Source of the DNA: a virus
Direction: 5' to 3' (one strand)
Length of the DNA: 45,432 bases
IMG/VR virus record: IMGVR_UViG_3300042261_000976
Span: 68,627-114,058 of that record
The notes beneath the pieces are model-generated. The model saw only the letters and a program-made list of their open reading frames with translations, was not told the origin of the DNA and made no database searches. Shown piece by piece: positions 17,420-38,975 of the stretch. Numbering within the stretch: the stretch's first letter is position 1; each line of letters starts with the position of its first letter. Position numbers and translations under genes: made by a program.

Positions 17420-17686
17420 ATGAAAACTTTTGAACAATTTGAAATTGATCCTTATGGTGAAGAAAATTGGAACGAAAAACAACCAAGATATGAAATTGGA
17501 GATGGAATAAGAATTAATGGATTGTTTCTAAGAATTTCTAGTTATAGAATGAGAGATGATGGTTATTACTGGTATGATTTAGAAGATGAAAGAAACTATA
17601 TAAGTAGAAGAGAGGATGTATTGAATCATATTAAACATCCTGAATGGTCGATTCAGAAATGTCTTAACCCATCAATAGAGGATTAA
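17420..17686 (+). CDS. Small protein with CTS-like N-terminus immediately followed by the DPYGEENW motif; candidate internal head protein
   Basis: The track ORF starts at 17369 and overlaps the upstream gene. The internal ATG at 17420 gives MKTFEQFEIDPYGEENW..., closely matching the T4 capsid-targeting sequence MKTYQEFIAE, and removes the overlap. Confidence 0.4.
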   Translation: MKTFEQFEIDPYGEENWNEKQPRYEIGDGIRINGLFLRISSYRMRDDGYYWYDLEDERNYISRREDVLNHIKHPEWSIQKCLNPSIED

Positions 17687-17704
17687 AAAAAATTAAAATT
17701 ATAA

Positions 17705-19531
17705 ATGGCAAGTTACGATCGATATAGAGGAAATCAAAATCAAGCTGGTACAAATACCACTAATTTTGGTTTGTTCAATAGAATATTAAGAGGACTTTCT
17801 ACCATGTTTGGTGGATTGGAATATAATGATATGCGTATTAGAAATTCATATGCTATTGGAGTACATGAAGAAACAACAGATGTTCTTTATCAACCAAATA
17901 GTTCTAATATGTATGATTTATTTACTAAGAAAACTATAGCAAGATTCTTAGACAAAAAATCAATCGCTTATCTAGATAGAACATATTTAGATAAAAGAAA
18001 AATCCTAAGACAATATTCTATAAAAGATGAAATTAAAGATTTCATAACTCAAATTGCCGATGAATGTATAATTTATGATGATAACAATAGATTTTGTTTT
18101 GTTAAAGATCTTCCAGACACATACGAACAAACTATAAGACAAAAATATCAAGAAACTTTTACTAAACTTATAAATACTTTTAATTTTAATGAGGGTCAAA
18201 CAGCGTGGAATTATCTTAAAAATCTTTTAATTGATGGTTATATTTCTTATGAAGTCGTCTATGATGATAAACAAAAAAATATTATAGATCTTGCCCCGAT
18301 TGATCCAATTACTTTAATTGTTGCTACTGATCCAAACACAAATACGATGATTTGGATTCAACATCCAGATAATCCGGCATTAAGAAGAATTTTATTGGAT
18401 TCACAAATTATTTATATTTCATATTCAAACAATAATGAATATGGAGAAACTTCTTATGTTGAAAATCTTATTCGTCCTTTCAATCAATTGAAAATGATTG
18501 AACAGGCTAGATTACTTTACAATATTAATCAAGCCTCTATTTATAAGAAATTTACAATACCTGTTGGAGGATTGACTCGTCAACAAGCAGAACAACAAAT
18601 AACAGAACTCATAGCTGAGTATCATGATGATGTTCAGTGGGATGAAAGAATGGGTACTGTAGCAATTAATGGGAGTACAAATATTCCTTTTAGTAAAGAT
18701 ATTTGGTTTCCTGAAGGCAATGCAGGTACTCCAAACGTAGAAATTTTACAACCAACACAAGTTAATTTAAATGAAGATATAGTTCTTCAATGGTTCTTTA
18801 AGATATTAAAAAGAGCTAGTAAATTACCATTTGAAAGATTTAATGAAGAAAATGGTGGTGGAGCCTATGCTTACGATTCAAACGCTCAAGTTACTAGGGA
18901 TGAAGTTAAATTTAAAAATTTCATCAATAGAATAAGAACTATATTTAAGGAAATTCTTCTTAAACCTTTGAAGATTCAAATGATTTTAGAATTTCCAGAA
19001 TTAAAAGACGATGTAGATTTTAATAACTCTATTAAACTTGATTTTATTTCTGATACATTATTTGAAGAATGGCGTCACCTAAAGAACTTAAATGAAAGAG
19101 CATCTATAGCCCAAACATTGAGTTCATCACTCCAAGATGCTGCTGGTAAACCTTATCTTAGCATAGAATGGATAGTTCGTCATATTATGAAGTTCACTGA
19201 TGCTGATATTGAAGAAAATAATAAATATAAAGCAATAGAACGTAAGATGATGGGTGGTATGGAAGGAGCCGAAGGCGGCGGTGAATTCGGAGGCGGCGGA
19301 GGCGGCTTCGGTGGTGGCGGTATGTCATTCGGAGGTGGCGGTGGAGCCCAATTCGGTGGCGGTGGAGCCCAATTCGGTGGCGGTGGAGCCCAATTCGGTG
19401 GCGGTGAATTCGGTGGAGCACAAGGCGGTGGAGCCCAATTTGGTGGGGCACAAGGAGCACAAGGCGGTGGAGCCCAATTTGGTGGAGCACAAGGCGGTGG
19501 TGGCGGACAATCACAAGCACCAACATTCTAA
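17705..19531 (+). CDS. Portal protein (T4 gp20-like) with unusual C-terminal Gly-rich repeat tail
   Basis: By-eye alignment to T4 gp20: VTRDEVKFKNFINRIRTIFKEILLKPLKIQMIL vs [33 protein letters not shown], plus a block matching around YRITRAPDRR.../TGNMEDIRWF. Gene order portal, protease, MCP. The last ~90 aa are GG(E/A)QFGGGG repeats. Confidence 0.8.
   Translation: MASYDRYRGNQNQAGTNTTNFGLFNRILRGLSTMFGGLEYNDMRIRNSYAIGVHEETTDVLYQPNSSNMYDLFTKKTIARFLDKKSIAYLDRTYLDKRKILRQYSIKDEIKDFITQIADECIIYDDNNRFCFVKDLPDTYEQTIRQKYQETFTKLINTFNFNEGQTAWNYLKNLLIDGYISYEVVYDDKQKNIIDLAPIDPITLIVATDPNTNTMIWIQHPDNPALRRILLDSQIIYISYSNNNEYGETSYVENLIRPFNQLKMIEQARLLYNINQASIYKKFTIPVGGLTRQQAEQQITELIAEYHDDVQWDERMGTVAINGSTNIPFSKDIWFPEGNAGTPNVEILQPTQVNLNEDIVLQWFFKILKRASKLPFERFNEENGGGAYAYDSNAQVTRDEVKFKNFINRIRTIFKEILLKPLKIQMILEFPELKDDVDFNNSIKLDFISDTLFEEWRHLKNLNERASIAQTLSSSLQDAAGKPYLSIEWIVRHIMKFTDADIEENNKYKAIERKMMGGMEGAEGGGEFGGGGGGFGGGGMSFGGGGGAQFGGGGAQFGGGGAQFGGGEFGGAQGGGAQFGGAQGAQGGGAQFGGAQGGGGGQSQAPTF
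19254..19500 (+). repeat. Tandem imperfect ~24-bp repeats (GGTGGAGCCCAATTCGGTGGCGGT) encoding a Gly/Ala/Gln/Phe-rich portal tail
   Basis: Directly visible repeat of GGAGCCCAATTCGGTGGCGGT units. Locally GC-rich. Generates three spurious overlapping ORFs in other frames. Confidence 0.7.
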
Positions 19532-19542
19532 ATATAAAAAAA

Positions 19543-19568
19543 CCTCTGATTTATCAGAGGTTTTTTTA
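19543..19568 (+). terminator. Rho-independent terminator after the portal gene
   Basis: CCTCTGAT-TT-ATCAGAGG hairpin followed by TTTTTTT, 12 nt after the portal stop. Confidence 0.75.
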
Positions 19569-19638
19569 TTCAGTTCCAAAATGGAAAAAAAAGAGTTTTT
19601 TAGGTTAATATATATCAATAAAATAAAAGAGCCTAAAC

Positions 19639-22113
19639 ATGTATTATAAAAATGTTTTAATCATTGAAAATTCAACAAATGGCTTAAAAAAACTAAACGA
19701 ATCCATAGCTCCTTCCGGTAAAAAGCAATATATACTGGGCGGTATTTTCACGGAATTTAACGTTAAAAATAGGAATGATAGGATTTATCAAGCGGATAGA
19801 TTTTTGCCACATTTGGATGAATTGTTAGAAAGAAAAAAGACTCTGGGTGTTATATATGGTGAATTTGATCACCCGGATGTTTTTGACACTAGTTTGTCTA
19901 GGGTATCTCATACGGTTGAAAAGTGTTTCTTTGTCAGAGAAAAAAATAGAGTAGATGGTGAAATTAGATTACTAAATACTCATTGGGGTAGAGAAGCACA
20001 AGCATTAATCGATGATGGATGCCCAATTTTTGTTTCTTCACGTGCCGCCGGTGTAACTGAGTCGAATGGTGAAGTAACTATTAAAAAACTATTTACATAC
20101 GACGCAGTTGCTGACCCTGGGTTTAGTTCTGCGAAAATGGAACTTCGCACCTTAAATGAATCGCTAGGATTTAACGAGAGTGCCAACTTTAGGATATATG
20201 ATATATCCGACGAGTCAAAAATAAACGAGTTGTTCAATATGGATAAAAATGAATTTGTAACCAAAGAACAGATGGAAAAGTACTCAAATTATTTGACCGA
20301 GCAAATCACAAAAACAAAAAGTGAAATTAATGAAGCCATCCAAAAGGGAGACTTCGATCCAGCAAAGTTATCTGATTTATATGACAAGTATGATTCCTTC
20401 CAGGAAGGCTTCAAGAAAATAGCTTCCTATCTTGACTACTTAGCAGAAACAATGCAAGTCTTAGTCCAAGAAAACAAAAAAATCAAGAAAACAAACGAAA
20501 AATTAGAAGGCAAATTAGATAGAACAAAAGCTAAAACAGAAAAAATTATTGAACATAATGACTATTTAGCTGGAGAACTTGAAAAAGCCATCGGGTACAC
20601 AGAAAAAGCCATCGGGTACACAGAATATGTAGCTGAAGCAGTTGACAAATCTATTGATTATTCAAATTACATAGCTGAGACATTAGATAAATCTATTGAT
20701 TTCTCTGAATATATCGCAGAAAACGTTGATAATACAATTAAATATTCTGAATATATCGCTGAAAATCTTGATAAATCTATTGACTATTCTGAGTATGTTG
20801 CAGAAAATCTAGAAAAGAATATCGCATATGCTGAATATATTGCAGAGCATGTTGATAATAACATCAAATATGCTGAATATATCGCTGAACATGTCGACAA
20901 TAATATTAAATATGCTGAATATATAGCAGAACACGTCGATAACAGTATCAAATATACAGAATATGTTGGAGAACAATTAGATAACAGTATTAAGTATTCA
21001 GAATACATTGCTGAAAATCTAACTGATTCTATTGCCTATGGTAATTACTTAGCAGAAGCAATTGACAAGAATGTTGAGTACGGTAAGTATCTCGCAGAAA
21101 AATTAAATAGTGGTTCATTTGGAAGATTAAACGAACAAGTACAACCACCAGCACAAAAAATGGGTAACTTCAAGACCGATTCAGTAGCCAAATACTATGA
21201 TGAAAATGAGAACGATATGACTCAAGCACAACCAGTACAGGGAGCTCAAGCACAAGGTGCACAACCAAGAATGGCTCAACCAGTACAAGGTCAAGCTCAA
21301 CCAAGAGCCCAAGCCCAAGCTCAACAAGTACAGGGTATGGATTTAGAAGGTGAAGAAAGTGAGGATATGGATGTTCAAGGAGTAAATGCTGAAGAAATTC
21401 AAGACATTGATGATAAGGCAGAACTCACTCCAGGTCAAGTTGTCAAGATTGATGACGACAAAACAGGTGAAATTTTAGCAGTTAATGCTGATAATGGAAT
21501 AGCTGTTGTTAAATTATCTGACACAGGTGAAGTCCAAGAGATTCAAGAATCCAGATTATCTATCATAGGTGATAAGATTTATGAATCAGAAAACACATTA
21601 AAGAAACTAATATTAAAGCAAATAAATGAGTCCAAAAAACGTGAGGCATCGAAAGATAACGAACCTCATTTCTTACTTTTCTTAACTGAAAAGAAAAAGG
21701 CTGCTTATTACAACCTTTCACAACAGGATAAAGAAAAAGTAATCGTTGCAATGAACGAAAGCAAAGGTTATACAACAGAAAGTGAAGTTCTCGCTATCAT
21801 GGCTAAAGCATTAACTACAGCCACAAGAAGTTTTAATGAGACGTTGATCGACAATATCCCAGGCGATCTAAGACCAATATGGGAAAGTTTACGTCCCGAG
21901 GTTCAAGGTAGTATTATAAATAGTGCGCAATTCTATACTAATTTGACAGAGGATAAAATGGAAAGTTTCTGGAATTCTAGAGACCTTCATAAATATGCAA
22001 AGAAAAACATGGGTAAAGTGACCTTGTTAACAGAAAGTAATAACAAATTTGATAACACTAAACTCTCTGATGATCTTGTAGATGCATATTTAAAAAGAAT
22101 TAATCAAAGATAA
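19639..22113 (+). CDS. Prohead protease (T4 gp21-like, N-terminal ~200 aa) fused to a long scaffold/core-like C-terminal extension
   Basis: GGIFTEFNVKNRNDRIYQ vs T4 gp21 EGIFLQAEVVNRNKRLYP; GEFDHP vs GELNHP (catalytic His); FVSSRAAGV vs GVSSRGLG (catalytic Ser). The C-terminal 600 aa hold coiled-coil tandem repeats (EYIAENVDNSIKYSEY, ~10 copies), a Q/A-rich tract and an acidic region, i.e. a gp22/scaffold-like character. Confidence 0.75.
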   Translation: MYYKNVLIIENSTNGLKKLNESIAPSGKKQYILGGIFTEFNVKNRNDRIYQADRFLPHLDELLERKKTLGVIYGEFDHPDVFDTSLSRVSHTVEKCFFVREKNRVDGEIRLLNTHWGREAQALIDDGCPIFVSSRAAGVTESNGEVTIKKLFTYDAVADPGFSSAKMELRTLNESLGFNESANFRIYDISDESKINELFNMDKNEFVTKEQMEKYSNYLTEQITKTKSEINEAIQKGDFDPAKLSDLYDKYDSFQEGFKKIASYLDYLAETMQVLVQENKKIKKTNEKLEGKLDRTKAKTEKIIEHNDYLAGELEKAIGYTEKAIGYTEYVAEAVDKSIDYSNYIAETLDKSIDFSEYIAENVDNTIKYSEYIAENLDKSIDYSEYVAENLEKNIAYAEYIAEHVDNNIKYAEYIAEHVDNNIKYAEYIAEHVDNSIKYTEYVGEQLDNSIKYSEYIAENLTDSIAYGNYLAEAIDKNVEYGKYLAEKLNSGSFGRLNEQVQPPAQKMGNFKTDSVAKYYDENENDMTQAQPVQGAQAQGAQPRMAQPVQGQAQPRAQAQAQQVQGMDLEGEESEDMDVQGVNAEEIQDIDDKAELTPGQVVKIDDDKTGEILAVNADNGIAVVKLSDTGEVQEIQESRLSIIGDKIYESENTLKKLILKQINESKKREASKDNEPHFLLFLTEKKKAAYYNLSQQDKEKVIVAMNESKGYTTESEVLAIMAKALTTATRSFNETLIDNIPGDLRPIWESLRPEVQGSIINSAQFYTNLTEDKMESFWNSRDLHKYAKKNMGKVTLLTESNNKFDNTKLSDDLVDAYLKRINQR
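20560..21070 (+). repeat. In-frame tandem repeats inside the protease-scaffold gene (2 x 21 bp, then ~10 x 48 bp)
   Basis: GAAAAAGCCATCGGGTACACA x2, followed by repeated units of the form GAATATATCGCAGAAAACGTTGATAATACAATTAAATATTCT encoding (S/A)EYIAE(N/H)(V/L)D(N/K)(S/N)I(K/D)Y. Confidence 0.75.
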
Positions 22114-22190
22114 ATTATCTATTCGACAAGCATTTTGGAAAAAAATGACTTTTTAAACCGAATATATAATTAAAAAAAAATTAGAAAAAA

Positions 22191-23975
22191 ATGAATTTTA
22201 TAGTTGACAGTGCGAAAGCAATAAAGAAATGGCAACCTATTCTCGACGCTCTTAGGGTAACTGATGATGACAAGAGAGCTTGGATGTCAGAGTATGCTGA
22301 AATGCATCAAATGAATGAAAATGTTGGCTATGCCACATTAAATCAAAAAGGTATGGGTCAAGTATTTGCTCCAGTAGTAGGTACAGTTCCAGGTGCAACA
22401 TGGCAAGATGGTCATGGCGCAATTGGTAGCGGTGACGTTGCTCAAAACCTCCTTCCAGTAGCTATGAAGATCGCTGCTCAAACAATCGGTTTGGATTTAG
22501 TAGCTGTTAAACCAACAGCATCACCAAGAATCGAGTTGTTATTCGTTGACTTCAAATATGACAACGCTTATGCAAACGATCCTAATCGTGAAGATATCGA
22601 TCCAAGACAAAGACCACTTGTTTTCAAATTAGCCACAAGCACAAGTGCTGGTGATTTAGCTTTAAAACAAGCTCTTCAATTACAACTCAGTCTTTTGAGT
22701 ATTCAAGAAAGAGTTGGTGGATTATCAAAAAGAACATGGGTTCACTTAGGAGCTGGTTGTACAGTTGCTCAATTAACTAATTTACCAGACAATTTACCAG
22801 CCGCTGGTTACTACAATTTTATGGAATTCTTAGGATTTTCAAGAATTGATGGACACCCAATGTATAGAATTTACAGACAAGCCGGTTTCTCAGTTGGTTC
22901 AATGACACCACAAGACGGTTCTGCATGGGATTCTACATTAAACACTTTCCCACAAACAGGAGCTATCACAGACGTTCTTATCGCAAGTGGTATTACCACA
23001 GTATCAGGAACATCAACATCTCAAGTCACAGGAAACACAGCAGCTGCTGGTGCAACTGTTGAATTAGTATCCTTACTCGAAGATCATATTCCAGGATTCT
23101 CCGCAGGTTGGACATCCAATATGGAAAATGGTTGGGAAGGCCCAATGACAAGATACCAAGATGAAAAAACCTATCCAGGTGTTATCGGTCCTGACGTATT
23201 TACAAAATCCGTCCAAGTTGGTGACATCGAAATCTCCTCAACATTGAAGAGAACCCAAATTGAAGACATCAAGGCTTCAACTGGTATGGATATTGTTCAG
23301 AAATTGGAAGGTGTTCTTATTAATGAATTAACTCAGGTTATTTCTAAGGAAATCGTAGGTAAAATCAGAAAATTAGCTCTTGCTAATAGAGATTCCTACA
23401 CAGCACCAAAAGCAACTGACGGTGTTACATGTAAATTCGACTTAAACGTTGACTCTTACATCGCATCACTTTCAAGTGGTACTTATGGTGGAGCAATGGG
23501 TGAAACAACTCACTCAATCCAAAGAAAGCTTATTGCTAAGATCAATAACGCTTCTAACTTCATCGCAACTGATGGTAGAATTGGACCAGCTCAATATTTG
23601 GTTACAAACGGTAACTTAGCTTCCGTTATCCAAGATATCGCTGGTTATACGATCAATCCAGTTAACGCTGGTAAATTAAACACCAACGGTCAACTTTATC
23701 CAATGGGTAATGTTGGACAGATTGCAATCTATGTAGATCCTTACATGAGATGGGATGATAACTTCATCTATATGGGTAGAAAGAATAGCGTTGACCAACC
23801 AGGTCTTCTCTTTATTCCTTACTTAATGGCTCAATCAATTAGCTTAATCAGTGAAGCTACCTGGGCACCCAGGATGTTAATTAGATCAAGATATGCAGTA
23901 GCTGATATCGGATTCTTCCCGGAAAAGCAATTCATGGCAATTAAAGTTACTGATAGTAACGGTGTTCTTATCTAA
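22191..23975 (+). CDS. Major capsid protein (T4 gp23-like, HK97-fold lineage)
   Basis: AKAIKKWQPILDAL vs T4 gp23 AELLNKWKPLLEG; AMKIAAQTIGLDLVAVKPTASPRIELLFV vs VRRAIPNLIAFDICGVQPMNSPTGQVFAL. Likely maturation cleavage at QMNE|NVGY, analogous to T4 FLTE|AEIGG. Followed by the strongest terminator in the window. Confidence 0.85.
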   Translation: MNFIVDSAKAIKKWQPILDALRVTDDDKRAWMSEYAEMHQMNENVGYATLNQKGMGQVFAPVVGTVPGATWQDGHGAIGSGDVAQNLLPVAMKIAAQTIGLDLVAVKPTASPRIELLFVDFKYDNAYANDPNREDIDPRQRPLVFKLATSTSAGDLALKQALQLQLSLLSIQERVGGLSKRTWVHLGAGCTVAQLTNLPDNLPAAGYYNFMEFLGFSRIDGHPMYRIYRQAGFSVGSMTPQDGSAWDSTLNTFPQTGAITDVLIASGITTVSGTSTSQVTGNTAAAGATVELVSLLEDHIPGFSAGWTSNMENGWEGPMTRYQDEKTYPGVIGPDVFTKSVQVGDIEISSTLKRTQIEDIKASTGMDIVQKLEGVLINELTQVISKEIVGKIRKLALANRDSYTAPKATDGVTCKFDLNVDSYIASLSSGTYGGAMGETTHSIQRKLIAKINNASNFIATDGRIGPAQYLVTNGNLASVIQDIAGYTINPVNAGKLNTNGQLYPMGNVGQIAIYVDPYMRWDDNFIYMGRKNSVDQPGLLFIPYLMAQSISLISEATWAPRMLIRSRYAVADIGFFPEKQFMAIKVTDSNGVLI

Positions 23976-24003
23976 TAGTTTGACTATTGGAATACAAAAA
24001 AAA

Positions 24004-24082: not shown

Positions 24083-24412
24083 ATGAATAACTTGAAGAGA
24101 TATAGAGAAATAAATGAGGATGTTGAAGAAAATAAATTCGTAAAATTTAATGGTAGGGATTCGTTTTCTAGAACTATCGAAGTAAAATCAGAAGATGCCA
24201 AAAACCAAAAGTTCCAAGACGAACTCAGTTACGCTATAGGTCTTATTAAAGAACATATAGAAGATGGTTTAGGTTATCAAATGAAAAAGAAATACAAAAT
24301 TAAAAATATGACTTTCAACGTAGACGATAAAGGAAAAGAATATTGTAAGATAGAATTCTTAGATACGAATACAAACGATATTGATCCTTACGGTGAAGAA
24401 GATTGGAGATAA
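24083..24412 (+). CDS. Small protein ending in the DPYGEEDW motif
   Basis: C-terminus is ...NDIDPYGEEDWR*. N-terminus MNNLKRYREINE parallels MNNLKTYEEF of ORF 38640..38975. A TATAAATC late-promoter-like motif lies ~40 nt upstream (24041..24048). Confidence 0.35.
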   Translation: MNNLKRYREINEDVEENKFVKFNGRDSFSRTIEVKSEDAKNQKFQDELSYAIGLIKEHIEDGLGYQMKKKYKIKNMTFNVDDKGKEYCKIEFLDTNTNDIDPYGEEDWR

Positions 24413-25907: not shown

Positions 25908-26706
25908 ACTTTTTATAGTTTATTATGTGACTTTCTTTTATCTTATTATTTTCGTGTAATTTTTTTATAAATCTTAGAAGTTCTTTTACTCCTAATATGG
26001 AACCGTTTTCTATATTTCTCCATATTATGTTCTCATAATCTTTTAGATTTATATTATTTATGTATTCCACATATTTATGTATTGGAATAACATCTGTTTC
26101 GTTATTTTCTTTATAACAATATAAGGAAAAGACTTCACTTGGATCCTCTGGTTTGTGTGTGTAAAAAACAAAAGATCTTTCTATCCAAGAATGAAATTGT
26201 CTTAAAAAATCATTTATTCTATCTCTAGTACCACCTGAGTAATAACTATCATCAATAAAAATAAATGGTTTGTATGTTATATTTGATTTTCTTTGTTTTA
26301 TAATTTCAACTTGATTATTCTCATCTTCTTTAACTTTCCTTATTCTTCCACTAGTTATAACAACATTACCATCGAAATCTATTTCACCATCTTCGATTAA
26401 TTTGTAAAGGTGAAGTCCAAAACTTCCTGAAGAAATTATATCAAAATCATTTCCTATTTTTGATTCCATTATAGAGAACATTTCTCTGATAATATCAATA
26501 TTTTGTGGTTCTATTATAAATTCATCTAATCTTTCCAAAAATGGAAACATAAAAATGGCGATATCTTCTCCTTCATATATGGATTTAATAAAATTAACAA
26601 AAATTTCAGCGTTCTCTTTATTGATACCTTCTTCTACTTCCAGAAAATCATCGACTTTTCTAGATAAAAGTTCATCTACAAAATTAGATATTTTAATATT
26701 TTTCAT
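25897..26706 (-). CDS. Phosphoribosyltransferase (PRTase)-type-fold protein
   Basis: PRPP-binding-loop-like motif PFIFIDDSYYSGGTRD (hydrophobic x4-DD-x3-SGGT). Confidence 0.35.
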   Translation of the reverse strand: MKNIKISNFVDELLSRKVDDFLEVEEGINKENAEIFVNFIKSIYEGEDIAIFMFPFLERLDEFIIEPQNIDIIREMFSIMESKIGNDFDIISSGSFGLHLYKLIEDGEIDFDGNVVITSGRIRKVKEDENNQVEIIKQRKSNITYKPFIFIDDSYYSGGTRDRINDFLRQFHSWIERSFVFYTHKPEDPSEVFSLYCYKENNETDVIPIHKYVEYINNINLKDYENIIWRNIENGSILGVKELLRFIKKLHENNKIKESHIINYKKFMR

Positions 26707-29084
26707 TCAGCTAATTTAAAATTTGTTATTTGAAGCCAAGGCCACACCTCTTTAACTCTAATTATAGTGCCACTATAGCCTTGAACATCATTACAATGGC
26801 TTATATCAACAATTGTCCACGAATCGCTCGTTTGATGAGGAATCCATTCACCGGAATTATAGACGCTAGTTTTATCAGTATCTTGTGTAGTTTTATCTCT
26901 CCAATAAAAAACTCTATCTCTATTTGAACGAACAATATCTCCAATACTATATTCGTATTCCTTAAATTCAGAAGGTTGTTCGTTGCCGAATTCACCTTTT
27001 TTATACCATTTGATTCCTTCTTCTAAAGTTCCTCTGATATTTTTATTGTAATATTCTCTCCATTTTGTATTTAAATTTTGCCAAAAAGAGCCACCTTCAG
27101 GGGTACTACTAAAAGAAAGAGATTTATCTATTAAATCTAATCCCTTCTTTTGGTTATGCCAATATTTTGGAAAATCGTTCATGACTTTAGAATTAATATA
27201 GTTTATGTATGTATCATAAGCCTTATTTTTTATTAAGAAATTTCTAAATTCGTCACTTATTATAAAATCATTATATTCATTGACATCAACTTCTTCATCA
27301 TCACTTAAATCACCAGCTCCATACCACTTCACTTTACCTTCTTTTAATTCGCCACGATGATTTGGATCAATACCCGCTTCTGGTGTAGTATAAAACCTCA
27401 TATAGTTTATCCATATTGCGTCTTCTTTTCTACACCATTCTTTATCATATTCACACCATTGAGCGTCAGAAACTTTAATTCTATCTCCAAGATAATCTAT
27501 TACATATTCTTGACCCGGTTCAATAGACGGATCAGCAAGTTTTTCTATATAATTTAAGTCCATTTCTTTCTTTTTCTTATCTTCTACTTTTTCCATATTC
27601 GTTGTTTGAAACCAAGGCCAAGATCCTTCCAATTGTACAATTGTTCCCGTGTAACCTTTTACATTATCCGCATAATCTACTGCCATAACAACTCTTTTAT
27701 CAAATTTATAACTACCGTCCCATTTACCTGGATTAGAAATACTTGTATCTTTTATATTCATTTTACTATTTTTAGAGTCGTCCCAATAATTAATTAATCC
27801 TTTTCTCTCTACTATATCACCTATCTTAAAATCTAATGCAGTATCATCTTTTCCTTCTTCTTCACTAAATTTTCCATCATTGTACCATTTAACTCCCTCT
27901 CGAATATTAGGATCCCTTATAATTATAGGATGATCGTTATTTACTTCAAGCACACCGTATCTTTTAGTATCAAATAATATAATTATTTGATTGCGTTTTT
28001 TAGATAAAGCTGGCAATAATCCACAAATTCTACCTTTATATAAGCCTACATTCTTTGTATTGGTATGAAATTCTATTTCTTTTCCTTTTAATTGATTTCT
28101 AATAGCTTCTCTTTTTTCATTCAGATATTTATACCAAAATTTCACAACTGTATATGTATTATCACTATTTAAATTTTCATCTAACCAATCTTCTTCACCG
28201 TAAGGGTCTCTATCTAAATTCATCAATCTTATTTCCTCTTTCTTTTTCCACATTTCTATTCTTCTCTGTTCTATAAATTCAGCATTATTTATAAAATCTT
28301 TTAATTTTATACATTTATTATATAGTTTTTGACTTCCATTGTCAGCCCTTTCTTGTGCTGTGCCTAAAATATATTTATTTACTATATTTATTCTTAAGCA
28401 ATCATTTGAACTGACGTTTGGAATATTTTCGGTTGGTTTAATACCACTTTTCCATATATATCCTAATTTTTCTAAATAATTTAGAAAGTCATTTATATCT
28501 TCCTGAGTTTCAAATTTAAAATATATCCAACCATTATATTCTTTAATATTTTCGTTAATTGTTTTTTCCTGCACATTCCAACCCCAATCTTCTTCGCCAT
28601 AAGGATCTAATTTTGGATCACCTGGTTTTTTCTTATATTTAAGACTTCCCGATTTCATAAAATCATCGAAAGACATTCTTTCTAGTCCCAATGATTCTAT
28701 TTTTTCTTCATCTTCACTTCTAACAAAACATTGATCACCATTATGAAAATAGAAAAATTTCATCAATTTTTTACTTCTCCCATATTGTTCTTTCGATTTA
28801 TATGTCTTTTCACCAATCTCATAGAGTTTCATAATGACTTTCATCATTTGATCGTAATCGTCATACATTATTGCCTTATTTCTTAAACTTTCATTAAGTA
28901 AAGCCTCATTTAAAAATCTTTTATATGATTTGAAAATGTTTTCATTCTTTGTTAGAGTTCCTATTTCTTTTAGTAAATCTTTGATATTTGTAATATATCC
29001 GTTATTAATTTTACCTTCTAACGCATCCATAGGTAAATCCATATCCATATCATGTAATACTTTCAAAAGTTTATCTTTTTCCAT
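26703..29084 (-). CDS. Large (793 aa) protein with internally duplicated domains and two DPYGEEDW motifs
   Basis: Two copies of ...D..GY(T/S)GTI(V/I)(Q/R)..(G/E).WPW(F/L)Q(T/I)TN, and three copies of G(I/V)KWY..G.F........IGDIV. DPYGEEDW occurs at aa ~162 and ~294. Confidence 0.4.
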   Translation of the reverse strand: MEKDKLLKVLHDMDMDLPMDALEGKINNGYITNIKDLLKEIGTLTKNENIFKSYKRFLNEALLNESLRNKAIMYDDYDQMMKVIMKLYEIGEKTYKSKEQYGRSKKLMKFFYFHNGDQCFVRSEDEEKIESLGLERMSFDDFMKSGSLKYKKKPGDPKLDPYGEEDWGWNVQEKTINENIKEYNGWIYFKFETQEDINDFLNYLEKLGYIWKSGIKPTENIPNVSSNDCLRINIVNKYILGTAQERADNGSQKLYNKCIKLKDFINNAEFIEQRRIEMWKKKEEIRLMNLDRDPYGEEDWLDENLNSDNTYTVVKFWYKYLNEKREAIRNQLKGKEIEFHTNTKNVGLYKGRICGLLPALSKKRNQIIILFDTKRYGVLEVNNDHPIIIRDPNIREGVKWYNDGKFSEEEGKDDTALDFKIGDIVERKGLINYWDDSKNSKMNIKDTSISNPGKWDGSYKFDKRVVMAVDYADNVKGYTGTIVQLEGSWPWFQTTNMEKVEDKKKKEMDLNYIEKLADPSIEPGQEYVIDYLGDRIKVSDAQWCEYDKEWCRKEDAIWINYMRFYTTPEAGIDPNHRGELKEGKVKWYGAGDLSDDEEVDVNEYNDFIISDEFRNFLIKNKAYDTYINYINSKVMNDFPKYWHNQKKGLDLIDKSLSFSSTPEGGSFWQNLNTKWREYYNKNIRGTLEEGIKWYKKGEFGNEQPSEFKEYEYSIGDIVRSNRDRVFYWRDKTTQDTDKTSVYNSGEWIPHQTSDSWTIVDISHCNDVQGYSGTIIRVKEVWPWLQITNFKLAE

Positions 29085-29825: not shown

Positions 29826-31406
29826 TTATTTTCTTCTATGTTTTATTATATAATCAGTTATTATTTCTGGTATATTTATTTCTGATATAACAGAAAATGT
29901 TGGGAAGTGTGGTGAAGAATTGGCTTCCATTACATAATATTTTCCAGTAACTTTATCCTGAATAATATCAAAACCAACTATATCACATATTAAATGTTTT
30001 GATATATCCTCACACATAGCAATTATATCTGGTGGTAATGATCCTTTTACAGCCTTTCCACCTCTTGCAACGTTAGCTCTAAATTCCTTTGAACCTTTTA
30101 TTCTTTCTTTCTTTATTACTAGTTCAACTTTATTCTTTATAGAAATAACTCTATAATCTCCGTCATTAGGAATAAATTTTTGAATCAACATCAACTTATT
30201 ATTATATCCAAAATGATCTACTAATTGTGACATTTTATCAATCTTGAAAACTCCTTCTCCTCTATTTAGATTAACATCTTTAACGATGACTGGAAATCCA
30301 AATTCTTTAACATGTTGAATAACTCTTTTCGTTAATTTTGTTGCCATTATTGAAGGTATATAAGGATAACCCAAAGATTCTAATAAATGAAATTCATAAG
30401 CCTTATTATCTAAATCTTTATATGTGCCATATTTGAGATATGGAATATTGTGTTTATCTAAATAATGGATTAACATTTTAACAACGGTAGAGAAATTAGA
30501 CATAAAACCAAAGAAAACAAAATCATATTCTTTAAGTCTCATATTATCAATATAATAATCATTATTGACTCTATAAATATCATCGTAATTACAAAAATCT
30601 ACTAATGAATCTTTTAATTTATCCTTGAATAAGAGTGGGAATAACTCTGACATTTGACGTTTTCCCTTAAAGTAATTGTGTTTATCTTTTTCACCGTGAG
30701 TATCTATGGCTAAATCAAATTGTAAGAATAAAAATTTATGTTTGAATGCGACGTCTCTTTCTACAGCCTTGAATCTAAACATTTTATATGGGATTCTATA
30801 ACCTATTTCTATATGAGGTTCTCCACTTTTATAATATCTTCCTTTACTATCGCATACAGTTCTTACTTTATGAAATGGTTTTGATTTCAGAAATTCAATT
30901 TGACTATCGTTCAGATCATTAAAATCTTCACAAATAACATAATCCCCAACTTGAATAGGCAAACTATCAATATCAAATGCTACATCATCTTCATCAAGTT
31001 CTTCGCCTTCTTTACCCATTAATGTGTCCATAACATCTTTTGGTAAGAACTTAAAATATGGATGTTCTTCAAGATCTTTTTTACTGATCTTTTTCTTTTC
31101 TTTCTTTTCTTTCTTTTTTAAGAAATCAAGATATGGATTTCTACTAGTTTCTTCTCCTCCTTCTTCTTTATCCTTTTCATCGCTGATAGGATTTTCATCC
31201 GGAAACAATGGTAGTTCTATTTGATCGTCTTTTTCCACAACACGTTTGCCTGGTTTCCCATATCCAAACATATTACTAAATGGTTTATCCCAATCAAAAT
31301 TAAATCCAAATGGTTTCTTTGAAGGGTCTGGTGGAGGTGCTTTCTTTTTAACATCTTTTTCTTTTTTCGCCTCGAAATAAGATGAATATTTTTGAATTTC
31401 TGTCAT
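29826..31406 (-). CDS. ATP-grasp ligase of the RimK family, with N-terminal K/E-rich low-complexity region
   Basis: C-terminal 300 aa: FPVIVKDVNLNRGEGVFKI, LIQKFIPNDGDYRVISI, EFRANVARGGKA, DIVGFDIIQDKVTGKYYVMEANSSP, the order and spacing of RimK/glutathione-synthetase-type ATP-grasp motifs. N-terminal 130 aa are KKEKKEKKK / EE-rich and disordered-looking. Confidence 0.65.
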   Translation of the reverse strand: MTEIQKYSSYFEAKKEKDVKKKAPPPDPSKKPFGFNFDWDKPFSNMFGYGKPGKRVVEKDDQIELPLFPDENPISDEKDKEEGGEETSRNPYLDFLKKKEKKEKKKISKKDLEEHPYFKFLPKDVMDTLMGKEGEELDEDDVAFDIDSLPIQVGDYVICEDFNDLNDSQIEFLKSKPFHKVRTVCDSKGRYYKSGEPHIEIGYRIPYKMFRFKAVERDVAFKHKFLFLQFDLAIDTHGEKDKHNYFKGKRQMSELFPLLFKDKLKDSLVDFCNYDDIYRVNNDYYIDNMRLKEYDFVFFGFMSNFSTVVKMLIHYLDKHNIPYLKYGTYKDLDNKAYEFHLLESLGYPYIPSIMATKLTKRVIQHVKEFGFPVIVKDVNLNRGEGVFKIDKMSQLVDHFGYNNKLMLIQKFIPNDGDYRVISIKNKVELVIKKERIKGSKEFRANVARGGKAVKGSLPPDIIAMCEDISKHLICDIVGFDIIQDKVTGKYYVMEANSSPHFPTFSVISEINIPEIITDYIIKHRRK

Positions 31407-33058: not shown

Positions 33059-33114
33059 TTTTTTTTAAGGGACAAAATGTTCCTCAAATTGGCATAAAAA
33101 AATAGTCAAAATGA

Positions 33115-33891
33115 CTATTTTTTATTTATTTTAGTTTTTTCTATTATTATAAAATTCTTCGATTTGTTATATCTTAAAATACTAGAAAAACTAAAGTTTT
33201 TTTCTTTTGAAAATTCTTTTAATTCATCTCTGCTTTTTATTTCAAATATATTATCATTGTTTTTTATTTTATAACAAACTGAATTTCCGTTATTTAATCC
33301 AAATCTTTCTATTTTCCATTTTTCTTTTAATTGTTCGGAATGAGTTTTATCATAAAAAGGATTTTTTTCTCCAATTTTAGCTTTTCTTATTTTTTCTTTT
33401 GATTCTTCTGTATGTTCAAAAATATGTCCTTCGTGTCCAATTAAAGATTTACTAATATTTTTTCTTCTCTCTTCTTTTTTCCTTTCTGACATATTTCCAA
33501 AAGCTATTATTACAGATTTTGATATTTTATCTTTTGTTGAATTATTATGCTTAAATCCACTTTGTCCTTCCCCACCATCGCTAAAATTAACAAGTGGTCC
33601 ATTTTCCATTCTTCCTATTTTTAATATTAATTCTTTTTCTTTCATAAAAGCTTTGTTTTCCGATAAATTATCATATACCTTTTTAACAATAGGAGTAAGA
33701 CCTAATTCTTTAATTTTACTAATTTTATTTAATTTATAAGAATTATTAATTGAATGATTCAAATGATAGAACATTCTATTGCCAATTCCTTTGCCTACAT
33801 AAAAAGGTTCAAAATCAAACTCTAAATTTTCATAAATGAATTTTCCTGGTTTTCTAGGATCTAAATAGATATAAACATAATATTCTTCCAT
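33115..33891 (-). mobile_element. GIY-YIG homing endonuclease (Seg / I-TevI-like, free-standing)
   Basis: N-terminal YVYIYLD...EPFYVGKGIGNRMFYHL (GIY...YIG...R...H). C-terminal NUMOD3-like helices (SKSLIGHEGHIFEHTEESKEKIRKAKIGEKNPFYDKTHSEQ). Located directly after the truncated DNA polymerase gene. Confidence 0.65.
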
Positions 33892-33905
33892 ATATACCGT
33901 AAAAA

Positions 33906-34000
33906 TTGGCGAACCCTAACTGCGGTGCGTCCACTGACTTTTTCAAGTTCTACACTAGCCCAAACGGTCGGAGCGCTCTTTTAGGTTTTACTCGCCAAAG
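33906..34000 (-). other. GC-rich ~95-nt structured element between the polymerase fragment and the homing-endonuclease gene
   Basis: Local GC ~55% against ~30% background. Bounded by a 7-bp inverted repeat TTGGCGA...TCGCCAA. Contains the palindromes GAGCGCTC and AGCGCT. No coding frame. Confidence 0.35.
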
Positions 34001-34032
34001 TTTATATATTTAATTCAAAAAATCAATTTTTT

Positions 34033-35547
34033 CTAATCCGAATATTCTAGTTCCATTATTAAATCTTCTTCTGCTGCCTTCAATTCTCTCTTATGTTCTT
34101 CCAATTTATCATGATCTTTCATCATGAAATCTTTATATTTCTTTCTATCTCCATATACATCAGTCATTACTTGATTAACTATACCAGTTTCATTCTTGAA
34201 CACAGTATCGTTTAACAATTTAATATCTGTAGGTTCTAGTTCAACTCTATGTCCATTAAATACTGCAAATTCTTTATTAGGTGATAAAACTCCTTTATAA
34301 GAATCTGCTGATATATTGAACATTCTCATACAAGTAGGGTACAAACTTGCGAAGTCATAACAAGCTGTCCACATCGCCATTCCCTTGATTGTATCTTTTA
34401 CCCAACCACCTTTAACTGCTTTTTCTAAAGATTCTATTACTGTATCTGGTAAACTTTTTTCTAATTTACAAAGAATAACATTTTTTTCTTCTTTAAGTTT
34501 TCTTCTTAAGATGCCTTCAGTAACAGGTAAAGTAGAATAAGCATCTAATATCTTTATTCTAGATAATGTAGCGATGCCATAAAGAATATCAACCCATTTA
34601 GTAGTATCATGTATTTTTTGAACTAGAATAGAGTCAACAGCATTATAAAAAATGAATTTCTTATAATCTGTAGATGCTAATGTTTTAAGTGTTCCTTCGT
34701 AATTGATTTTCTTTACACCAAGAATACCATCAGAAACAAAGTCTAAACTGCTTGCCTCTTTTACTTTAATGATACTATTCCATTTTTCATATAATTCCTG
34801 ATAGTCAACTATAATTCTATGTCCTGGTAATTCGCAGAAAGATTCTCTTTTTTTACCACTTTTATTATCTCTTTTAAATGGAGGTCTAAGAACTCTCGTT
34901 GGTGATGCTGCGGTAGGATCAACTCCTATTTTTCTAGCTCTATTAACAAGAAATACCCAGTCGTATTCTGTAAAGTTCCAACCTGTTATGATTGGCATTT
35001 TTGGTACAAATTTCTCAAAGAAATTTAGTAACATTTCATATTCACTCTTATATCTTACGAATTTGAAATCATAGTCAGCGTTGAATTTAACAAAATAATT
35101 ATTAATGTCTTCTCTAATGGATTTTTCTTGCTCAGCACTCAAAGCGTCAAGCCCCATTACCATTACTTTATTCTTATTGACTATAGATATTGATTGTATT
35201 GCGCTTTCAGCTAATTGAGGTTGCGGCTTTTTATCCAGAATTTCGTTTTCAATATCAACAAAGAAAATTTCTGGCTCTACATATTTCATTACAATTTCTT
35301 GTTCTTCTTTCGGAAGACTATCAATAAAATCGTATACAGAATATCTATCTGGAAATCTTGTATAGACTTTCTTTACTGCTTTACCATCCCATGTAACATA
35401 TTGACCGTCTTTATCTCTATCATCGTCAGAGCAAACAACGTATTTGGTTGGATTTGGCCATGTATAGTACTTATGTTTTATCCATCCACCTTCACCGATG
35501 TAAGACAACATGAGTTTTTGATTCTTATATTCGTAATCTACAACCAA
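34033..35547 (-). CDS. Family-B DNA polymerase, N-terminal fragment only (T4 gp43 '43A'-like: 3'-5' exonuclease domain through polymerase motif A)
   Basis: Exo I IFFVDIENE (T4 CDIEVTG); Exo II MPIITGWNFTEYDWVFLVNRA (T4 PAIFTGWNIEGFDVPYIMNRV); Exo III FIFYNAVDSILVQKI (T4 YISYNIIDVESVQAI); motif A YDFASLYPTCMRMFNIS (T4 FDLTSLYPSIIRQVNIS). Ends ~70 aa after motif A. Motifs B and C are absent. The annotated start is a TTG at 35547; the first ATG is at 35511. Confidence 0.75.
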   Translation of the reverse strand: MVVDYEYKNQKLMLSYIGEGGWIKHKYYTWPNPTKYVVCSDDDRDKDGQYVTWDGKAVKKVYTRFPDRYSVYDFIDSLPKEEQEIVMKYVEPEIFFVDIENEILDKKPQPQLAESAIQSISIVNKNKVMVMGLDALSAEQEKSIREDINNYFVKFNADYDFKFVRYKSEYEMLLNFFEKFVPKMPIITGWNFTEYDWVFLVNRARKIGVDPTAASPTRVLRPPFKRDNKSGKKRESFCELPGHRIIVDYQELYEKWNSIIKVKEASSLDFVSDGILGVKKINYEGTLKTLASTDYKKFIFYNAVDSILVQKIHDTTKWVDILYGIATLSRIKILDAYSTLPVTEGILRRKLKEEKNVILCKLEKSLPDTVIESLEKAVKGGWVKDTIKGMAMWTACYDFASLYPTCMRMFNISADSYKGVLSPNKEFAVFNGHRVELEPTDIKLLNDTVFKNETGIVNQVMTDVYGDRKKYKDFMMKDHDKLEEHKRELKAAEEDLIMELEYSD

Positions 35548-35782
35548 TTAAAATTCTTTTTGTTTTTTATACGATAATTCTATAAAAAAGTTTTGAAATA
35601 AAAAACCCAGAATAGTAGCGAACTTTCCTGGGTCTAAGATAGCCGTTGGCTATAACGATCCTAATAATCGTATTTTATTGAAAAATTGAAGTTTTTATCT
35701 GTTCAATTTTAACTTCGTCGTCCACTTTAGTTATTTTTAATAATCATTAAATCTTATAATATTATTTATTTTATTTTCTTTT

Positions 35783-36211: not shown

Positions 36212-36366
36212 TTATATAAAGTATTTTTTTAACATAGCTTTTGCTTTATAATCATTAACGCTAGATTTGCAGTTATGTTTATTATAAAGATGACCTATTT
36301 TATAATTAATAGAATCACAAACTTCTTCACCACATTCTAAACATTTAGTTTTAGGACATTTTTATA

Positions 36367-37143: not shown

Positions 37144-37170
37144 GTCGTGATGTTTATTTTTTACTATATA

Positions 37171-37638
37171 TTAATTTATATTTTCAATACTTGGTATATT
37201 TTCCATTTTTGCTAATTTTCTCTTTAAATCATTTAGTTCTTTATCGAACTCTGCCTGTGAATATTTGCTAAAACCTAAAAATCCTCCAGTGCATATAACA
37301 CTAATATTTTTTTTCTTTATAGCCCAAATAGATCTAGCTTCTTCTTTATTTCTTGCTTTAACCCATCCAATTCTAAAACCCCTATCATTAGGGCCGCCAT
37401 CAGTATATTCTCTTATTTCGTATATTTTTTCTTCCTTTTTATCTCCTTCTGATAATTTTTGTAATGTTCTTTCATATTCCGGTCTTTCGTGGGCATATTT
37501 AAAATTGTGATTATCTGCCAATTCTTTTAACTTCGATTTAATAATTTTAGTTTTTTCATCGTCAAACTCCCAAGACTCTTCGCCATATGGATCCACCGGA
37601 TTAATGTCTTCTTTCAAATATTCACAAAAACTTATCAT
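37171..37638 (-). CDS. Small protein with N-terminal DPYGEESW motif
   Basis: MISFCEYLKEDINPVDPYGEESWEFDD... Start overlaps the upstream stop (ATGA). Confidence 0.35.
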   Translation of the reverse strand: MISFCEYLKEDINPVDPYGEESWEFDDEKTKIIKSKLKELADNHNFKYAHERPEYERTLQKLSEGDKKEEKIYEIREYTDGGPNDRGFRIGWVKARNKEEARSIWAIKKKNISVICTGGFLGFSKYSQAEFDKELNDLKRKLAKMENIPSIENIN

Positions 37639-38624
37639 TTATTCCTTAGAGTTTCTTTTTCTGCTGCAGATAATCCATTATAACCAACTCTATTTACTTT
37701 ATCGAGAATGGCATCAATTTCTTCTTGTTTTGTCCTATATGCTTTTCTTGGTATTTCTTTTCTTGGATTCGGTTTAGGTTTTGCTCTTCTCCAATCATCG
37801 CCCGGATAACCTTCTTGACCTCTAAAATTAGGATCGAATTTTCTTATCACCTTATCAGCCCATCCTTTTTGAATAGCGTAATAAATAAAGAAACATACAG
37901 CAACAGATACTAATATGCTAGTTAAAGAAATTTCTTCTCTTATACCAAAAACTTCATCATAAGCTCTCGTTACTCTTTCTTCATTGGCATTACAAATATC
38001 TTTGATTTGTCTATAATATCCTGGGTTTCTAACAACAGCTATGCTAAGTCTTGGCGAATCAAAAACTTCTCTAACTTCACTCTCTGGTAATTTTATACCT
38101 TCGAATAAGTCTTTAATTTTACCTATAAATTCCATGGCTTTATTGATAAATCCCTTACCAAATCCTTCATTTAGAAGATCGTCATATTTTATTACGTGTT
38201 TCATATTTTCTAAAATATTTTTACCTGTTATACTATTCGATGATAAACTACGTTTCTCTTTAGGCACTTCGCTTATAGGCATATCTGGTATATCTGTACC
38301 TCTTTCTGATCTTTCTTTGGAATCTCTAGTATAACCTAAACTTTTTTTATTATCATCTCTTACAAATGTTTCATAAGAGTCTATATGTCTATCTAATGGA
38401 TTGTCCCACCAGAATAAATTATTCATTTCTTGTTTTCCTTTATGTTTAACTAAATCATCGATAACTCTATCACCTACATCCCCACTCATATGAGTATGCT
38501 CGGGACCTACTTGAATATCTTGAGATCTATTTATTTCATCTCTAATTCTTTTAAGTTGATCCACAGTAGTTTGTCGTGGTAAACTCTCATTTAATTTATT
38601 ATATTTGTTATATCTTTTTGACAT
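37635..38624 (-). CDS. Hypothetical protein with one C-proximal transmembrane segment
   Basis: Hydrophobic stretch LTSILVSVAVCFFIYYAI near aa 245. No recognisable domain. Confidence 0.3.
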   Translation of the reverse strand: MSKRYNKYNKLNESLPRQTTVDQLKRIRDEINRSQDIQVGPEHTHMSGDVGDRVIDDLVKHKGKQEMNNLFWWDNPLDRHIDSYETFVRDDNKKSLGYTRDSKERSERGTDIPDMPISEVPKEKRSLSSNSITGKNILENMKHVIKYDDLLNEGFGKGFINKAMEFIGKIKDLFEGIKLPESEVREVFDSPRLSIAVVRNPGYYRQIKDICNANEERVTRAYDEVFGIREEISLTSILVSVAVCFFIYYAIQKGWADKVIRKFDPNFRGQEGYPGDDWRRAKPKPNPRKEIPRKAYRTKQEEIDAILDKVNRVGYNGLSAAEKETLRNK

Positions 38625-38639
38625 TTTTTTTATAAATTT

Positions 38640-38975
38640 TTAACTTCTATATCTATGGCGTTGTCTTGGTCTATAAGTACTACTACTTCTAGGTCCAGAA
38701 CTATAACTAGATGCTTTACCATCATATCCGCCTGTTCTTTCATAATAATCTGCCTGCGCTTTCATTTGTTTTGCTACAACTTCTTCAGCGTCTGGATCTA
38801 ATTCTTCCCCATAAGGATCATTTGGATCATATTCTCTTGGTTTATTGGCAGTCTTAGCAACTTTAGCCCATTCTTTTTCCAGGTCTTTTTTTTGTTTTTG
38901 ATATTCTTCATCTGGAGTGAGTTCCTTTTTGCTCCAAGGCCATTTGAATTCTTCGTATGTTTTTAAGTTGTTCAT
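38640..38975 (-). CDS. Small protein with CTS-like N-terminus and DPYGEE motif (candidate internal head protein)
   Basis: MNNLKTYEEFKW... matches KTYEEF against T4 KTYQEF. Internal ...DPNDPYGEELDPD. Confidence 0.4.
   Translation of the reverse strand: MNNLKTYEEFKWPWSKKELTPDEEYQKQKKDLEKEWAKVAKTANKPREYDPNDPYGEELDPDAEEVVAKQMKAQADYYERTGGYDGKASSYSSGPRSSSTYRPRQRHRYRS

Follow-up and report, generated by a model that had tools for sequence, protein, structure and literature searches.

The locus described here raises the question of what a short acidic peptide, DPYGEExW, does in several otherwise unrelated proteins of one virus. The DNA analysed (the window) is a stretch of 45,432 nucleotides, positions 68,627 to 114,058 of IMG/VR virus record IMGVR_UViG_3300042261_000976, with a G+C content of 31%. 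The peptide, called the tag below, is tentatively regarded as a portable docking signal for one lineage-specific partner, probably in head assembly. A first-pass annotation had reported six copies, the sixth without the Trp, in five otherwise unrelated carriers, and both statements are borne out. A six-frame search finds the hexamer DPYGEE at 17447-17464 (+), 24383-24400 (+), 28191-28208 (-), 28590-28607 (-), 37576-37593 (-) and 38802-38819 (-), every copy in the sense frame of a long open reading frame (ORF), and xW follows in five of the six as DPYGEE[N/D/S]W. The amino-acid composition predicts 0.0006 copies in the window, against the six observed; in 200 per-protein shuffles any hexamer was common to at most two proteins, against five real proteins for DPYGEE. 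With the motif masked, no significant pairwise similarity is left among the five carriers (the best E-value, 0.28, comes from a common N-terminal MNNLK.Y.E), and none of the five has a match in Pfam or PHROGs.

The nearest GenBank relative of the window is LR756501 (LR756503 is a duplicate record), with 80% nucleotide identity over part of the query only. It is a 735-kb genome described by Al-Shayeb et al. in 2020, placed in the 'Mahaphage' clade with Bacteroidetes as predicted hosts (PMC7162821). The first tag copy of the window (DPYGEENW, 17447..17470, +) is of the N-terminal class, occupying residues 10-17 counted from the Met at 17420, straight after MKTFEQFE, a peptide resembling a capsid-targeting sequence (CTS). 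Its carrier of 88 residues (17420..17686, +; 105 residues with the start at 17369) lies directly upstream of the portal gene and consists of the CTS-like N-terminus, the tag and a small beta-rich domain; a homolog search gave three matches only, and the ORF is missing from the syntenic site of LR756501. The second copy (DPYGEEDW, 24383..24406, +) is C-terminal, followed by Arg and the stop codon, in a 109-residue ORF directly downstream of the major capsid protein (MCP) gene (24083..24412, +) with the CTS-like N-terminus MNNLKRYREINE; like the portal-adjacent carrier, it has no counterpart in LR756501. The third and fourth copies, both DPYGEEDW and of the linker class, are found in a 793-residue protein (26703..29084, -) at residues 160-167 (28584..28607, -) and 293-300 (28185..28208, -), the latter between a long K/E-rich helix and a folded domain and kept in the LR756501 ortholog. 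This protein is a string of small modules and also has three copies of a basic motif, [VI]KWYxxGx[FL]; a homolog search gave nine matches, and its relatives have up to about 10 tags or a fused phosphoribosyltransferase domain. The fifth copy (DPYGEESW, 37570..37593, -) is N-terminal, at residues 16-23 of a 155-residue ORF (37171..37638, -) with a tagged homolog at LR756501 474929-475399. The sixth (DPYGEELD, 38796..38819, -) begins at residue 53 of a 111-residue ORF (38640..38975, -) with the CTS-like N-terminus MNNLKTYEEF, and its LR756501 ortholog is likewise without the Trp (DPYGEEEQ).

The first-pass annotation had proposed a genome-wide count against shuffled controls, and on that scale the tag is far above expectation. 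LR756501 as a whole contains 109 DPYGEE hexamers in six frames, 106 of them inside 91 of its approximately 996 genes (9%; the genes being crude longest-ORF calls), where 0.009 would be expected. The peptide is also strict: 100 copies are exact DPYGEExW, six are without the Trp, only four one-mismatch variants occur, and seven of the eight positions are all but invariant. When IMG/VR was scanned with a back-translated pattern, by which the loci were thus picked for the motif itself, at least 113 stretches matched, many with 3-7 copies. In 185,579 bacterial and archaeal genomes (596 Gb) there were 72 single matches and no multi-copy locus, which equals chance expectation. Among 50,697 phage records, a 21-residue tail used as tblastn query matched LR756501/3 only. 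A profile search with an alignment of 121 tag regions gave seven candidates and one match, too little for a global census, and a literature search with the peptide and its sub-strings returned unrelated eukaryotic matches only and, in the library searched, no paper on the tag. The limits of the lineage were drawn from the flanks of 67 relatives of the window MCP (22191..23975, +). Where the MCP is at least 76% identical to that of the window, 206 kb contain seven exact tags and four near variants (DPFGEDSW, DPWGEEDW, DPYNEEDW and DPFSEEQW). Where it is 46-71% identical, 807 kb around the capsid genes contain none, and none was found in the 200 kb sampled from LR756502 and LR756504. The tag arose in the lineage with an MCP at least 76% identical to that of the window, and is restricted to it.

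The wider consensus is [DE][ILV]-DPYGEE-[DNE]-W-[EDN]-[DE]. Among the matches listed, 209 instances in complete IMG/VR ORFs divide into 66 at the extreme C-terminus, 44 of which stop exactly at W+2, 53 N-terminal ones located 15-20 residues after the initiator Met, and 90 internal ones; LR756501 has 40 C-terminal, 21 N-terminal and 45 internal copies. C-terminal copies usually come after [KR][IV][FY][ST]xx, e.g. KRIYSDIDPYGEENWEE, and N-terminal copies after peptides of the M(I)K.F..FEQL type, while internal copies often stand behind a K/R/E-rich helix and divide modules about 100-120 residues long. The region of the tag, preceded by a mildly basic stretch, is itself strongly acidic and hydrophilic. 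AlphaFold2 (AF2) places all three modelled window copies in coil, with a predicted local distance difference test (pLDDT) score of 29-44, in weak models of mean pLDDT 46.6 and 63. The lower mean is that of the 793-residue protein, in which the window's third tag copy is coil at pLDDT of about 29-32; in the moderate model of the 88-residue carrier, residues 1-19 are coil with pLDDT <50 and the tag is undocked from the adjacent domain. Shortness, location in disordered regions, independent origin in unrelated proteins and rapid gain and loss are features the tag shares with short linear motifs, which typically have a degenerate consensus with few fixed positions, unlike the near-invariant tag. 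An EF-hand or DxDxDG calcium loop was considered and rejected: in [DE]-I-D-P-Y-G-E-E-D-W-E-D, position 5 is the invariant Tyr and position 8 is Glu.

The carriers are highly diverse. Once the tag is masked, BLAST sorts 184 complete carriers into 118 clusters (among the matches listed, hence at least 118 families), the largest of which (n=21) comprises leucine-rich-repeat proteins. Together with about 100 copies per related genome, this upholds the earlier claim that the motif is portable and does not reflect shared ancestry. Of 90 LR756501 carriers, no more than a few match a Pfam domain (GNAT, methyltransferase, phosphoribosyltransferase, nucleotidyltransferase). A carrier of 1179 residues in LR756501 appears, when its sequence is read by eye, to join deaminase-like and CCA-adding-enzyme-like parts through four tags. 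Membrane-type hydrophobic segments are present at background rate, in 10 of 91 carriers and 103 of all 996 genes. The tag is gained and lost between orthologs of the window and LR756501: the protein at 37635-38624 (-) is tag-free in the window and tagged in LR756501. The last 30 residues of the window protein (residues 297-326) match Pfam DUF6576 (E = 1.4e-9), and the LR756501 ortholog is cut down to 171 residues with a DPYGEE tag in place of the DUF6576 end. The tag moves freely from one unrelated protein to another, and between either end of a protein and the joints of its domains.

Among the small carriers, several derive from virion proteins of the phage itself, as diverged fragments or as inactive copies. 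A tagged protease-domain paralog of 178 residues has GYP and FRPRAAG where the real protease has DHP and VSSRAAG, so that the conserved His and Ser are lost; the catalytic residues are assigned by paralog conservation only, since PDB sequence searches with the protease domain and the tagged paralog gave no match. In the alignment of the protease paralogs the tag falls where the real protease joins the scaffold (LRTLNESLGFNESANF versus IRVYNELDPYGEENW), which suggests that the tag stands in for scaffold attachment. There are further a tagged paralog of the scaffold repeats, tagged pieces of the MCP (residues 21-124, 52-132, 139-300, 322-386 and 517-565), scrambled tagged pieces of the portal, and tagged N- and C-terminal pieces of a sheath-like protein. 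Such genes are located at LR756501 11314-11850, 48028-48549, 145891-146127, 497197-498567, 552409-552918, 553796-554218, 554941-555297 and 619760-620383, and at positions 1-3256 of locus L094. They often form tandem arrays of genes of 80-160 residues; in L094, 11 consecutive small genes all end in ..R[IV]YSD[ILV]DPYGEE.WE[EK], with bodies that are virion-protein fragments.

The CTS of the T4 internal proteins IPI-III comprises about 10 N-terminal residues, MKTYQEFIAE. Within these first 10 residues, positions 4 and 7 are needed for targeting and positions 8 and 10 for cleavage, gp21 cutting after L/I-x-E (PMC9026906; PMC3012670). A CTS-like start (aromatic residues at i and i+3, then [ILV]-x-E) is present in 16 of the 43 window ORFs, e.g. 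MIIYNYNSFLNE, MNNLKTYEEF and MIKKFDAFVNE. Such ORFs start at 8946, 10001, 11075, 12181, 17420, 19639 and 24083 on the plus strand, and lie at 29826 (start 31406), 35783, 36367, 37171, 37635, 38640, 38977 and 39326 on the minus strand; the RimK-like ligase and the protease-scaffold are among them. All five window carriers have one (hypergeometric p about 0.005), the peptides including MKTFEQFE, MNNLKTYEEF and MIKNFKIFE. An additional, internal CTS-like peptide is seen at residues 51-63 of the 26703-29084 protein. A regular expression for the CTS-like start applied to LR756501 matches 30% of the carriers against 9.4% of the remaining genes (odds ratio 4, p = 3e-7) and 2.5% of internal control positions; the odds ratio is still 2.9 without the carriers of the N-terminal class. 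CTS-like ends are also present in the tag-less LR756502/4, and CTS and tag are therefore separable signals. The scaffold domain (20642-21020, +, in ORF 19639-22113) consists of about 12 tandem repeats of 13-14 residues, ..D.SI.YSEYIAE.., with a 42-nucleotide period; every repeat resembles the T4 CTS (YQEFIAE) and has an I-A-E site of the gp21 type, which suggests that CTS peptides mimic scaffold repeats. Like the T4 CTS, the tag is a short peptide and the sole conserved part of otherwise unrelated accessory proteins of a phage with a T4-type head, and its carriers are enriched in CTS-like N-termini. The CTS differs in its hydrophobic and aromatic character, its strict restriction to the N-terminus and its removal at L/I-x-E. 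In sequence the tag bears no resemblance to the CTS; it is acidic and far stricter, and only a sub-lineage has it. No more than about 20-25% of tags are near the N-terminus, starting 15-20 residues in, while 32-38% are C-terminal and 42-43% internal. DPYGEExW does not fit the CTS pattern of aromatics at positions 4 and 7 and L/I-x-E, which the separate N-terminal peptides of the carriers do fit.

The strict invariance, the terminal and linker positions, the turnover and the lineage restriction together point to a portable recognition tag with one reader. DPYGEExW would be its core, set in the exposed, unstructured ends and linkers of some 9% of all proteins in one narrow lineage of huge phages with T4-like heads, and a single, hypothetical, lineage-specific partner would read it as a docking signal. 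The assembling prohead is the single likeliest destination because of the CTS enrichment and the tagged paralogs of head proteins; the T4-like head itself, and the position of two window carriers flanking the portal and capsid genes, also relate the tag to the head. The tag would then act beside the CTS, as an independent second signal by which accessory proteins are tied to the core of the assembling head, possibly working like the C-terminal tail of the HK97 protease or the cargo peptides of encapsulins; a T4-type protease could afterwards trim nearby L/I-x-E sites. Of three functions offered in the first-pass annotation (a capsid-targeting or scaffold-docking signal, a prohead-protease site, and a substrate of the RimK-type ligase), the first is the best supported, if only indirectly, by the roughly fourfold CTS-like enrichment and by the protease paralogs with the tag at the scaffold junction. 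Several points weigh against it, and on balance it is rather less likely than not. Carriers contain membrane-type segments at the rate of the whole gene set, although such segments ought to be scarce in pure capsid cargo. Fragments of the tail sheath are tagged as well, as are enzymes of cytoplasmic type (the deaminase/CCA-adding-enzyme fusion, GNAT, methyltransferase). In the N-terminal class the tag comes directly after a CTS-like peptide, so that two capsid signals would be redundant. Since the scaffold is itself strongly acidic, it is unlikely to receive an acidic tag directly; 91 kinds of cargo protein are many, and both AF2 models are of low or moderate confidence. The partner is hypothetical, and its binding and the packaging of the carriers are only inferred.

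Comparable peptides are known from other systems. Encapsulin cargo-loading peptides, microcompartment encapsulation peptides and the tail of the HK97 protease are short terminal peptides on flexible linkers that load cargo into shells of the HK97 fold or other kinds. The tag likewise is a short conserved terminal peptide on unrelated cargo (118 clusters), with a flexible linker before the fold as far as the low-pLDDT coil of weak models can indicate; it occurs at either terminus, and a protease-domain protein bears one at its C-terminus. The known peptides are hydrophobic or amphipathic, degenerate and limited to a handful of cargoes, whereas the tag is acidic, near-invariant and present in ~9% of the proteome, membrane proteins included, and its shell binding is only predicted. 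A second group comprises acidic motifs such as the Nrf2 DxETGE bound by the Keap1 Kelch domain and the W-acidic motifs bound by the TPR domain of kinesin light chain, the latter also used by viruses, e.g. in vaccinia A36. These are similarly compact and acidic, with Gly and aromatic residues in disordered regions, and bind the basic pocket of one reader. They are eukaryotic, and the weak Kelch/beta-propeller Pfam matches in the window, at 40229-43114 and 14191-15480, are below threshold.

Several other readings compete with that of a docking signal for the prohead. The view that the repeat is a DNA-level element (a recombination site, cassette boundary or regulatory site) translated by accident is close to refuted, and selection acts on the peptide, unusually strictly. 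All synonymous codons are in use across 229 tag copies (among the matches listed), the DNA 3' of C-terminal tags is unrelated between copies, tags occur on both strands yet in the gene's own frame (106 of 109 copies in LR756501), and 54-nucleotide tails within one array have a mean identity of 71%; these observations together indicate selection on the peptide. Conservation, moreover, ends with the peptide, and copies are also N-terminal and inside proteins. The same 71% may be counted in favour of a DNA element, as may the fact that W-E-E-stop (TGGGAGGAATAA) can serve as ribosome-binding site of the next gene in that array, and the over-use of CCT (71% versus 32% background) and TAC (45% versus 20%), again among the matches listed. 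The earlier explanation of the nucleotide conservation by AT-biased codon choice thus holds for the most part, except that CCT and TAC exceed the background. The conservation is not of the nucleotide-level, frame-independent kind expected of a DNA repeat or mobile cassette boundary, and stop-codon recoding at C-terminal tags is rejected in view of the ordinary TAA, TGA and TAG stops in genome-wide proportions and the unrelated downstream sequence. It is quite unlikely that the tag is an autonomous beta-turn or hairpin (strand [KR][IV][FY][ST]xx, turn DPYG, strand EExWxx) that caps, solubilises or protects ends and linkers without a partner. The cross-strand pattern would suit it, with an aromatic residue at -4 facing W+7 and K/R at -6/-7 facing E/D at +8/+9, as would the highly acidic tail and the many carriers that are small ORFan proteins or fragments; AF2, however, predicts coil, albeit at low confidence and for copies without the KRIYS flank, the upstream strand is absent from N-terminal and many internal copies, and near-invariance of seven residues in more than 100 contexts exceeds the needs of a generic cap or solubility tail. 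Modification by a phage enzyme, either glutamylation by the RimK-like ATP-grasp ligase (29826..31406, -; 526 residues, with a CTS-like N-terminus) or the action of a Tyr-directed enzyme, is very unlikely. RimK acts on C-terminal Glu-Glu, yet 62-68% of the tags are not C-terminal, and the last residue of the C-terminal tags among the matches listed is Glu in only 34%, Asp in 26% and Asn in 15%, with others making up the rest. RimK-like genes are also found in tag-less T4-like cyanophages and YerA41, and homologs at 47-55% identity lie in contigs without the tag in their flanks. These points run counter to the earlier suggestion of a RimK substrate. In favour of modification are the location of the RimK-like gene 1.2 kb from a carrier gene, its retention in tag-positive relatives, its going undetected in LR756502/4 and a strict invariance that would suit an enzyme active site. 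A related-locus search with the single RimK-like protein found no loci; with a RimK-like alignment it found 13, in which presence of the gene does not discriminate tag status.

It is unlikely that a site-specific protease recognises the tag, cutting multi-module proteins at each copy and freeing N-terminal leaders. Viral polyproteins have protease sites of this sort, e.g. those of potyvirus NIa, with the tobacco etch virus (TEV) site ENLYFQ/G; the seven invariant positions of the tag resemble such heptapeptides, both having about seven strict residues at module junctions of viral proteins. Tags do stand at module boundaries, and fusion and fission occur at them (the phosphoribosyltransferase is fused in relatives and a separate gene in the window); stand-alone genes stop two residues past the Trp, as a cleavage product would. 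The difference is that many tags are terminal and have nothing to release, 40 of the 106 in LR756501 being already C-terminal and equally conserved. The dedicated second protease would be hypothetical, and phages are not known to us to use polyproteins in that way. The first-pass annotation had proposed a cut by the prohead protease itself, as YGE/E, and this is not supported in that form. Y-G-E and G-E-E, the possible P3-P1 residues, do end in Glu, the P1 residue in both T4 and phiKZ, where the phiKZ-group site is S/A-x-E (PMC9026906). T4-type sites, however, have L or I at P3, and in this phage the scaffold repeats contain I-A-E, and the CTS-like ends L-N-E or I-F-E, rather than YGE. The canonical substrates, namely the MCP, the protease-scaffold and the portal, contain no DPYGEE in the window or in LR756501, and seven invariant residues with a C-terminal class ending at W+2 are unlike a minimal cleavage site. 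The main rival is that the tag docks its carriers on a non-capsid hub (a chaperone, a protease adaptor or a multivalent scaffold), where enzymes, leucine-rich-repeat proteins, membrane anchors and pieces of virion proteins would come together at one virus-factory-like site in the cell; this is doubtful. In its favour, the carriers include membrane-anchored proteins at background rate, cytoplasmic-type enzymes and sheath fragments, and beads-on-a-string proteins have up to 6-10 tags about 100-120 residues apart. The reader could be an SH3-like module behind the tag, or the basic motif [VI][KR]W[YF]xxGK[LF]. An SH3-like xIGDxV start occurs within 30 residues after the tag in 23 of 195 cases, against 19 of 2847 in the background (18-fold). 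The basic motif, of the VRWYKKGKL type, is itself portable, in linkers or at C-termini; LR756501 has 24 copies in 17 proteins, five of them evenly spaced in one (290091-291557), and the window copies lie in the 793-residue carrier at 27867-27893, 27306-27332 and 26988-27014 (-). It has the tag's lineage limits, the 807 + 200 kb from tag-negative relatives being free of it, and five of the 17 proteins contain the tag as well. On the other side, such a reader is hypothetical, the hidden Markov model of the SH3-like module matches only seven LR756501 proteins, too small a number for the module to count as the established reader, AF2 leaves the tag undocked from the adjacent domain, and the CTS-like enrichment and the head-protein paralogs point to the head. 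More far-reaching, and similarly doubtful, is the idea of a lineage-own, proteome-wide sorting code, in which the acidic tag, possibly paired with the basic motif or the SH3-like modules, would connect roughly one protein in ten within a single multivalent network; enzymes, leucine-rich-repeat binders, membrane anchors and retained inactive capsid, portal, protease, scaffold and sheath fragments would be its members, the tagged virion fragments serving as adaptors or decoys that link virion proteins, or the host sensors of them, to the network. To our knowledge, no organelle-like address system of such a kind is known in a bacteriophage.

The remaining features of the window concern the genes around the carriers. 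The head module consists of a T4-type portal of the gp20 family (17705..19531, +), a prohead protease (S77/S80) fused to the scaffold (19639..22113, +) and the gp23-type MCP, all three tag-free. A tandem repeat rich in Gly, GGGAQFGG.. (periods of 15, 21 and 39 nucleotides), forms the C-terminus of the portal (19334-19500, +). Upstream of the head module, at 8946-13122 (+), four tandem paralogs of 313-363 residues each have a CTS-like N-terminus and are basic, with an isoelectric point of about 8.6-8.9; they have no match in Pfam or PHROG and could be the major internal proteins of the head. One starts with ..FINEDIDPMTGEEKK, which is loosely tag-like. Other genes of the window encode the RimK-like ATP-grasp protein, a class-II aminoacyl-tRNA-synthetase-like protein, and a family-B DNA polymerase fragment beside a GIY-YIG endonuclease. 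The RimK-like homolog of Yersinia phage YerA41 is annotated as 'structural protein'. The synthetase-like gene (32180-33058, -) adjoins the RimK-like ligase gene and encodes a class-II catalytic core of 292 residues that may be like EpmA or AsnA, because the anticodon-binding domain is absent. At 33115-35547 (-), the polymerase ORF of 504 residues comprises the exonuclease domain and only the start of the polymerase domain, and a GIY-YIG/NUMOD3 homing-endonuclease gene follows it; the polymerase gene therefore appears split. A periodic repeat of 9/18/36/54 nucleotides at 44801-45428 reaches the window edge. The frame of the longest ORF gives LVEHQEL repeats, and an alternative minus-strand frame would encode Gly-X-Y repeats (GTS-type, collagen-like), either frame being possible; SGTSGT is present in 11 LR756501 proteins.

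Peptide address signals on viral accessory proteins are a known kind of element. New here are the sequence, its near-invariance, its three positions, its presence in ~9% of a proteome and the virion fragments among its carriers. The catalytically dead or fragmentary tagged copies of virion proteins represent a new class of phage gene. Huge phages have hundreds of genes without an assigned function and no means of grouping them, and in the largest complete phage genome one octapeptide marks ~9% of the genes as belonging to one process. The sharp boundary at an MCP identity of at least 76% makes comparative identification of the partner feasible, and the octapeptide is a direct experimental handle on the reader. 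If the reader is a part of the head, the tag would define the arsenal of proteins that a megaphage packages and injects, and would offer a new loading signal for engineered capsids; if it lies outside the head, the tag would be the first proteome-scale address code in a phage.

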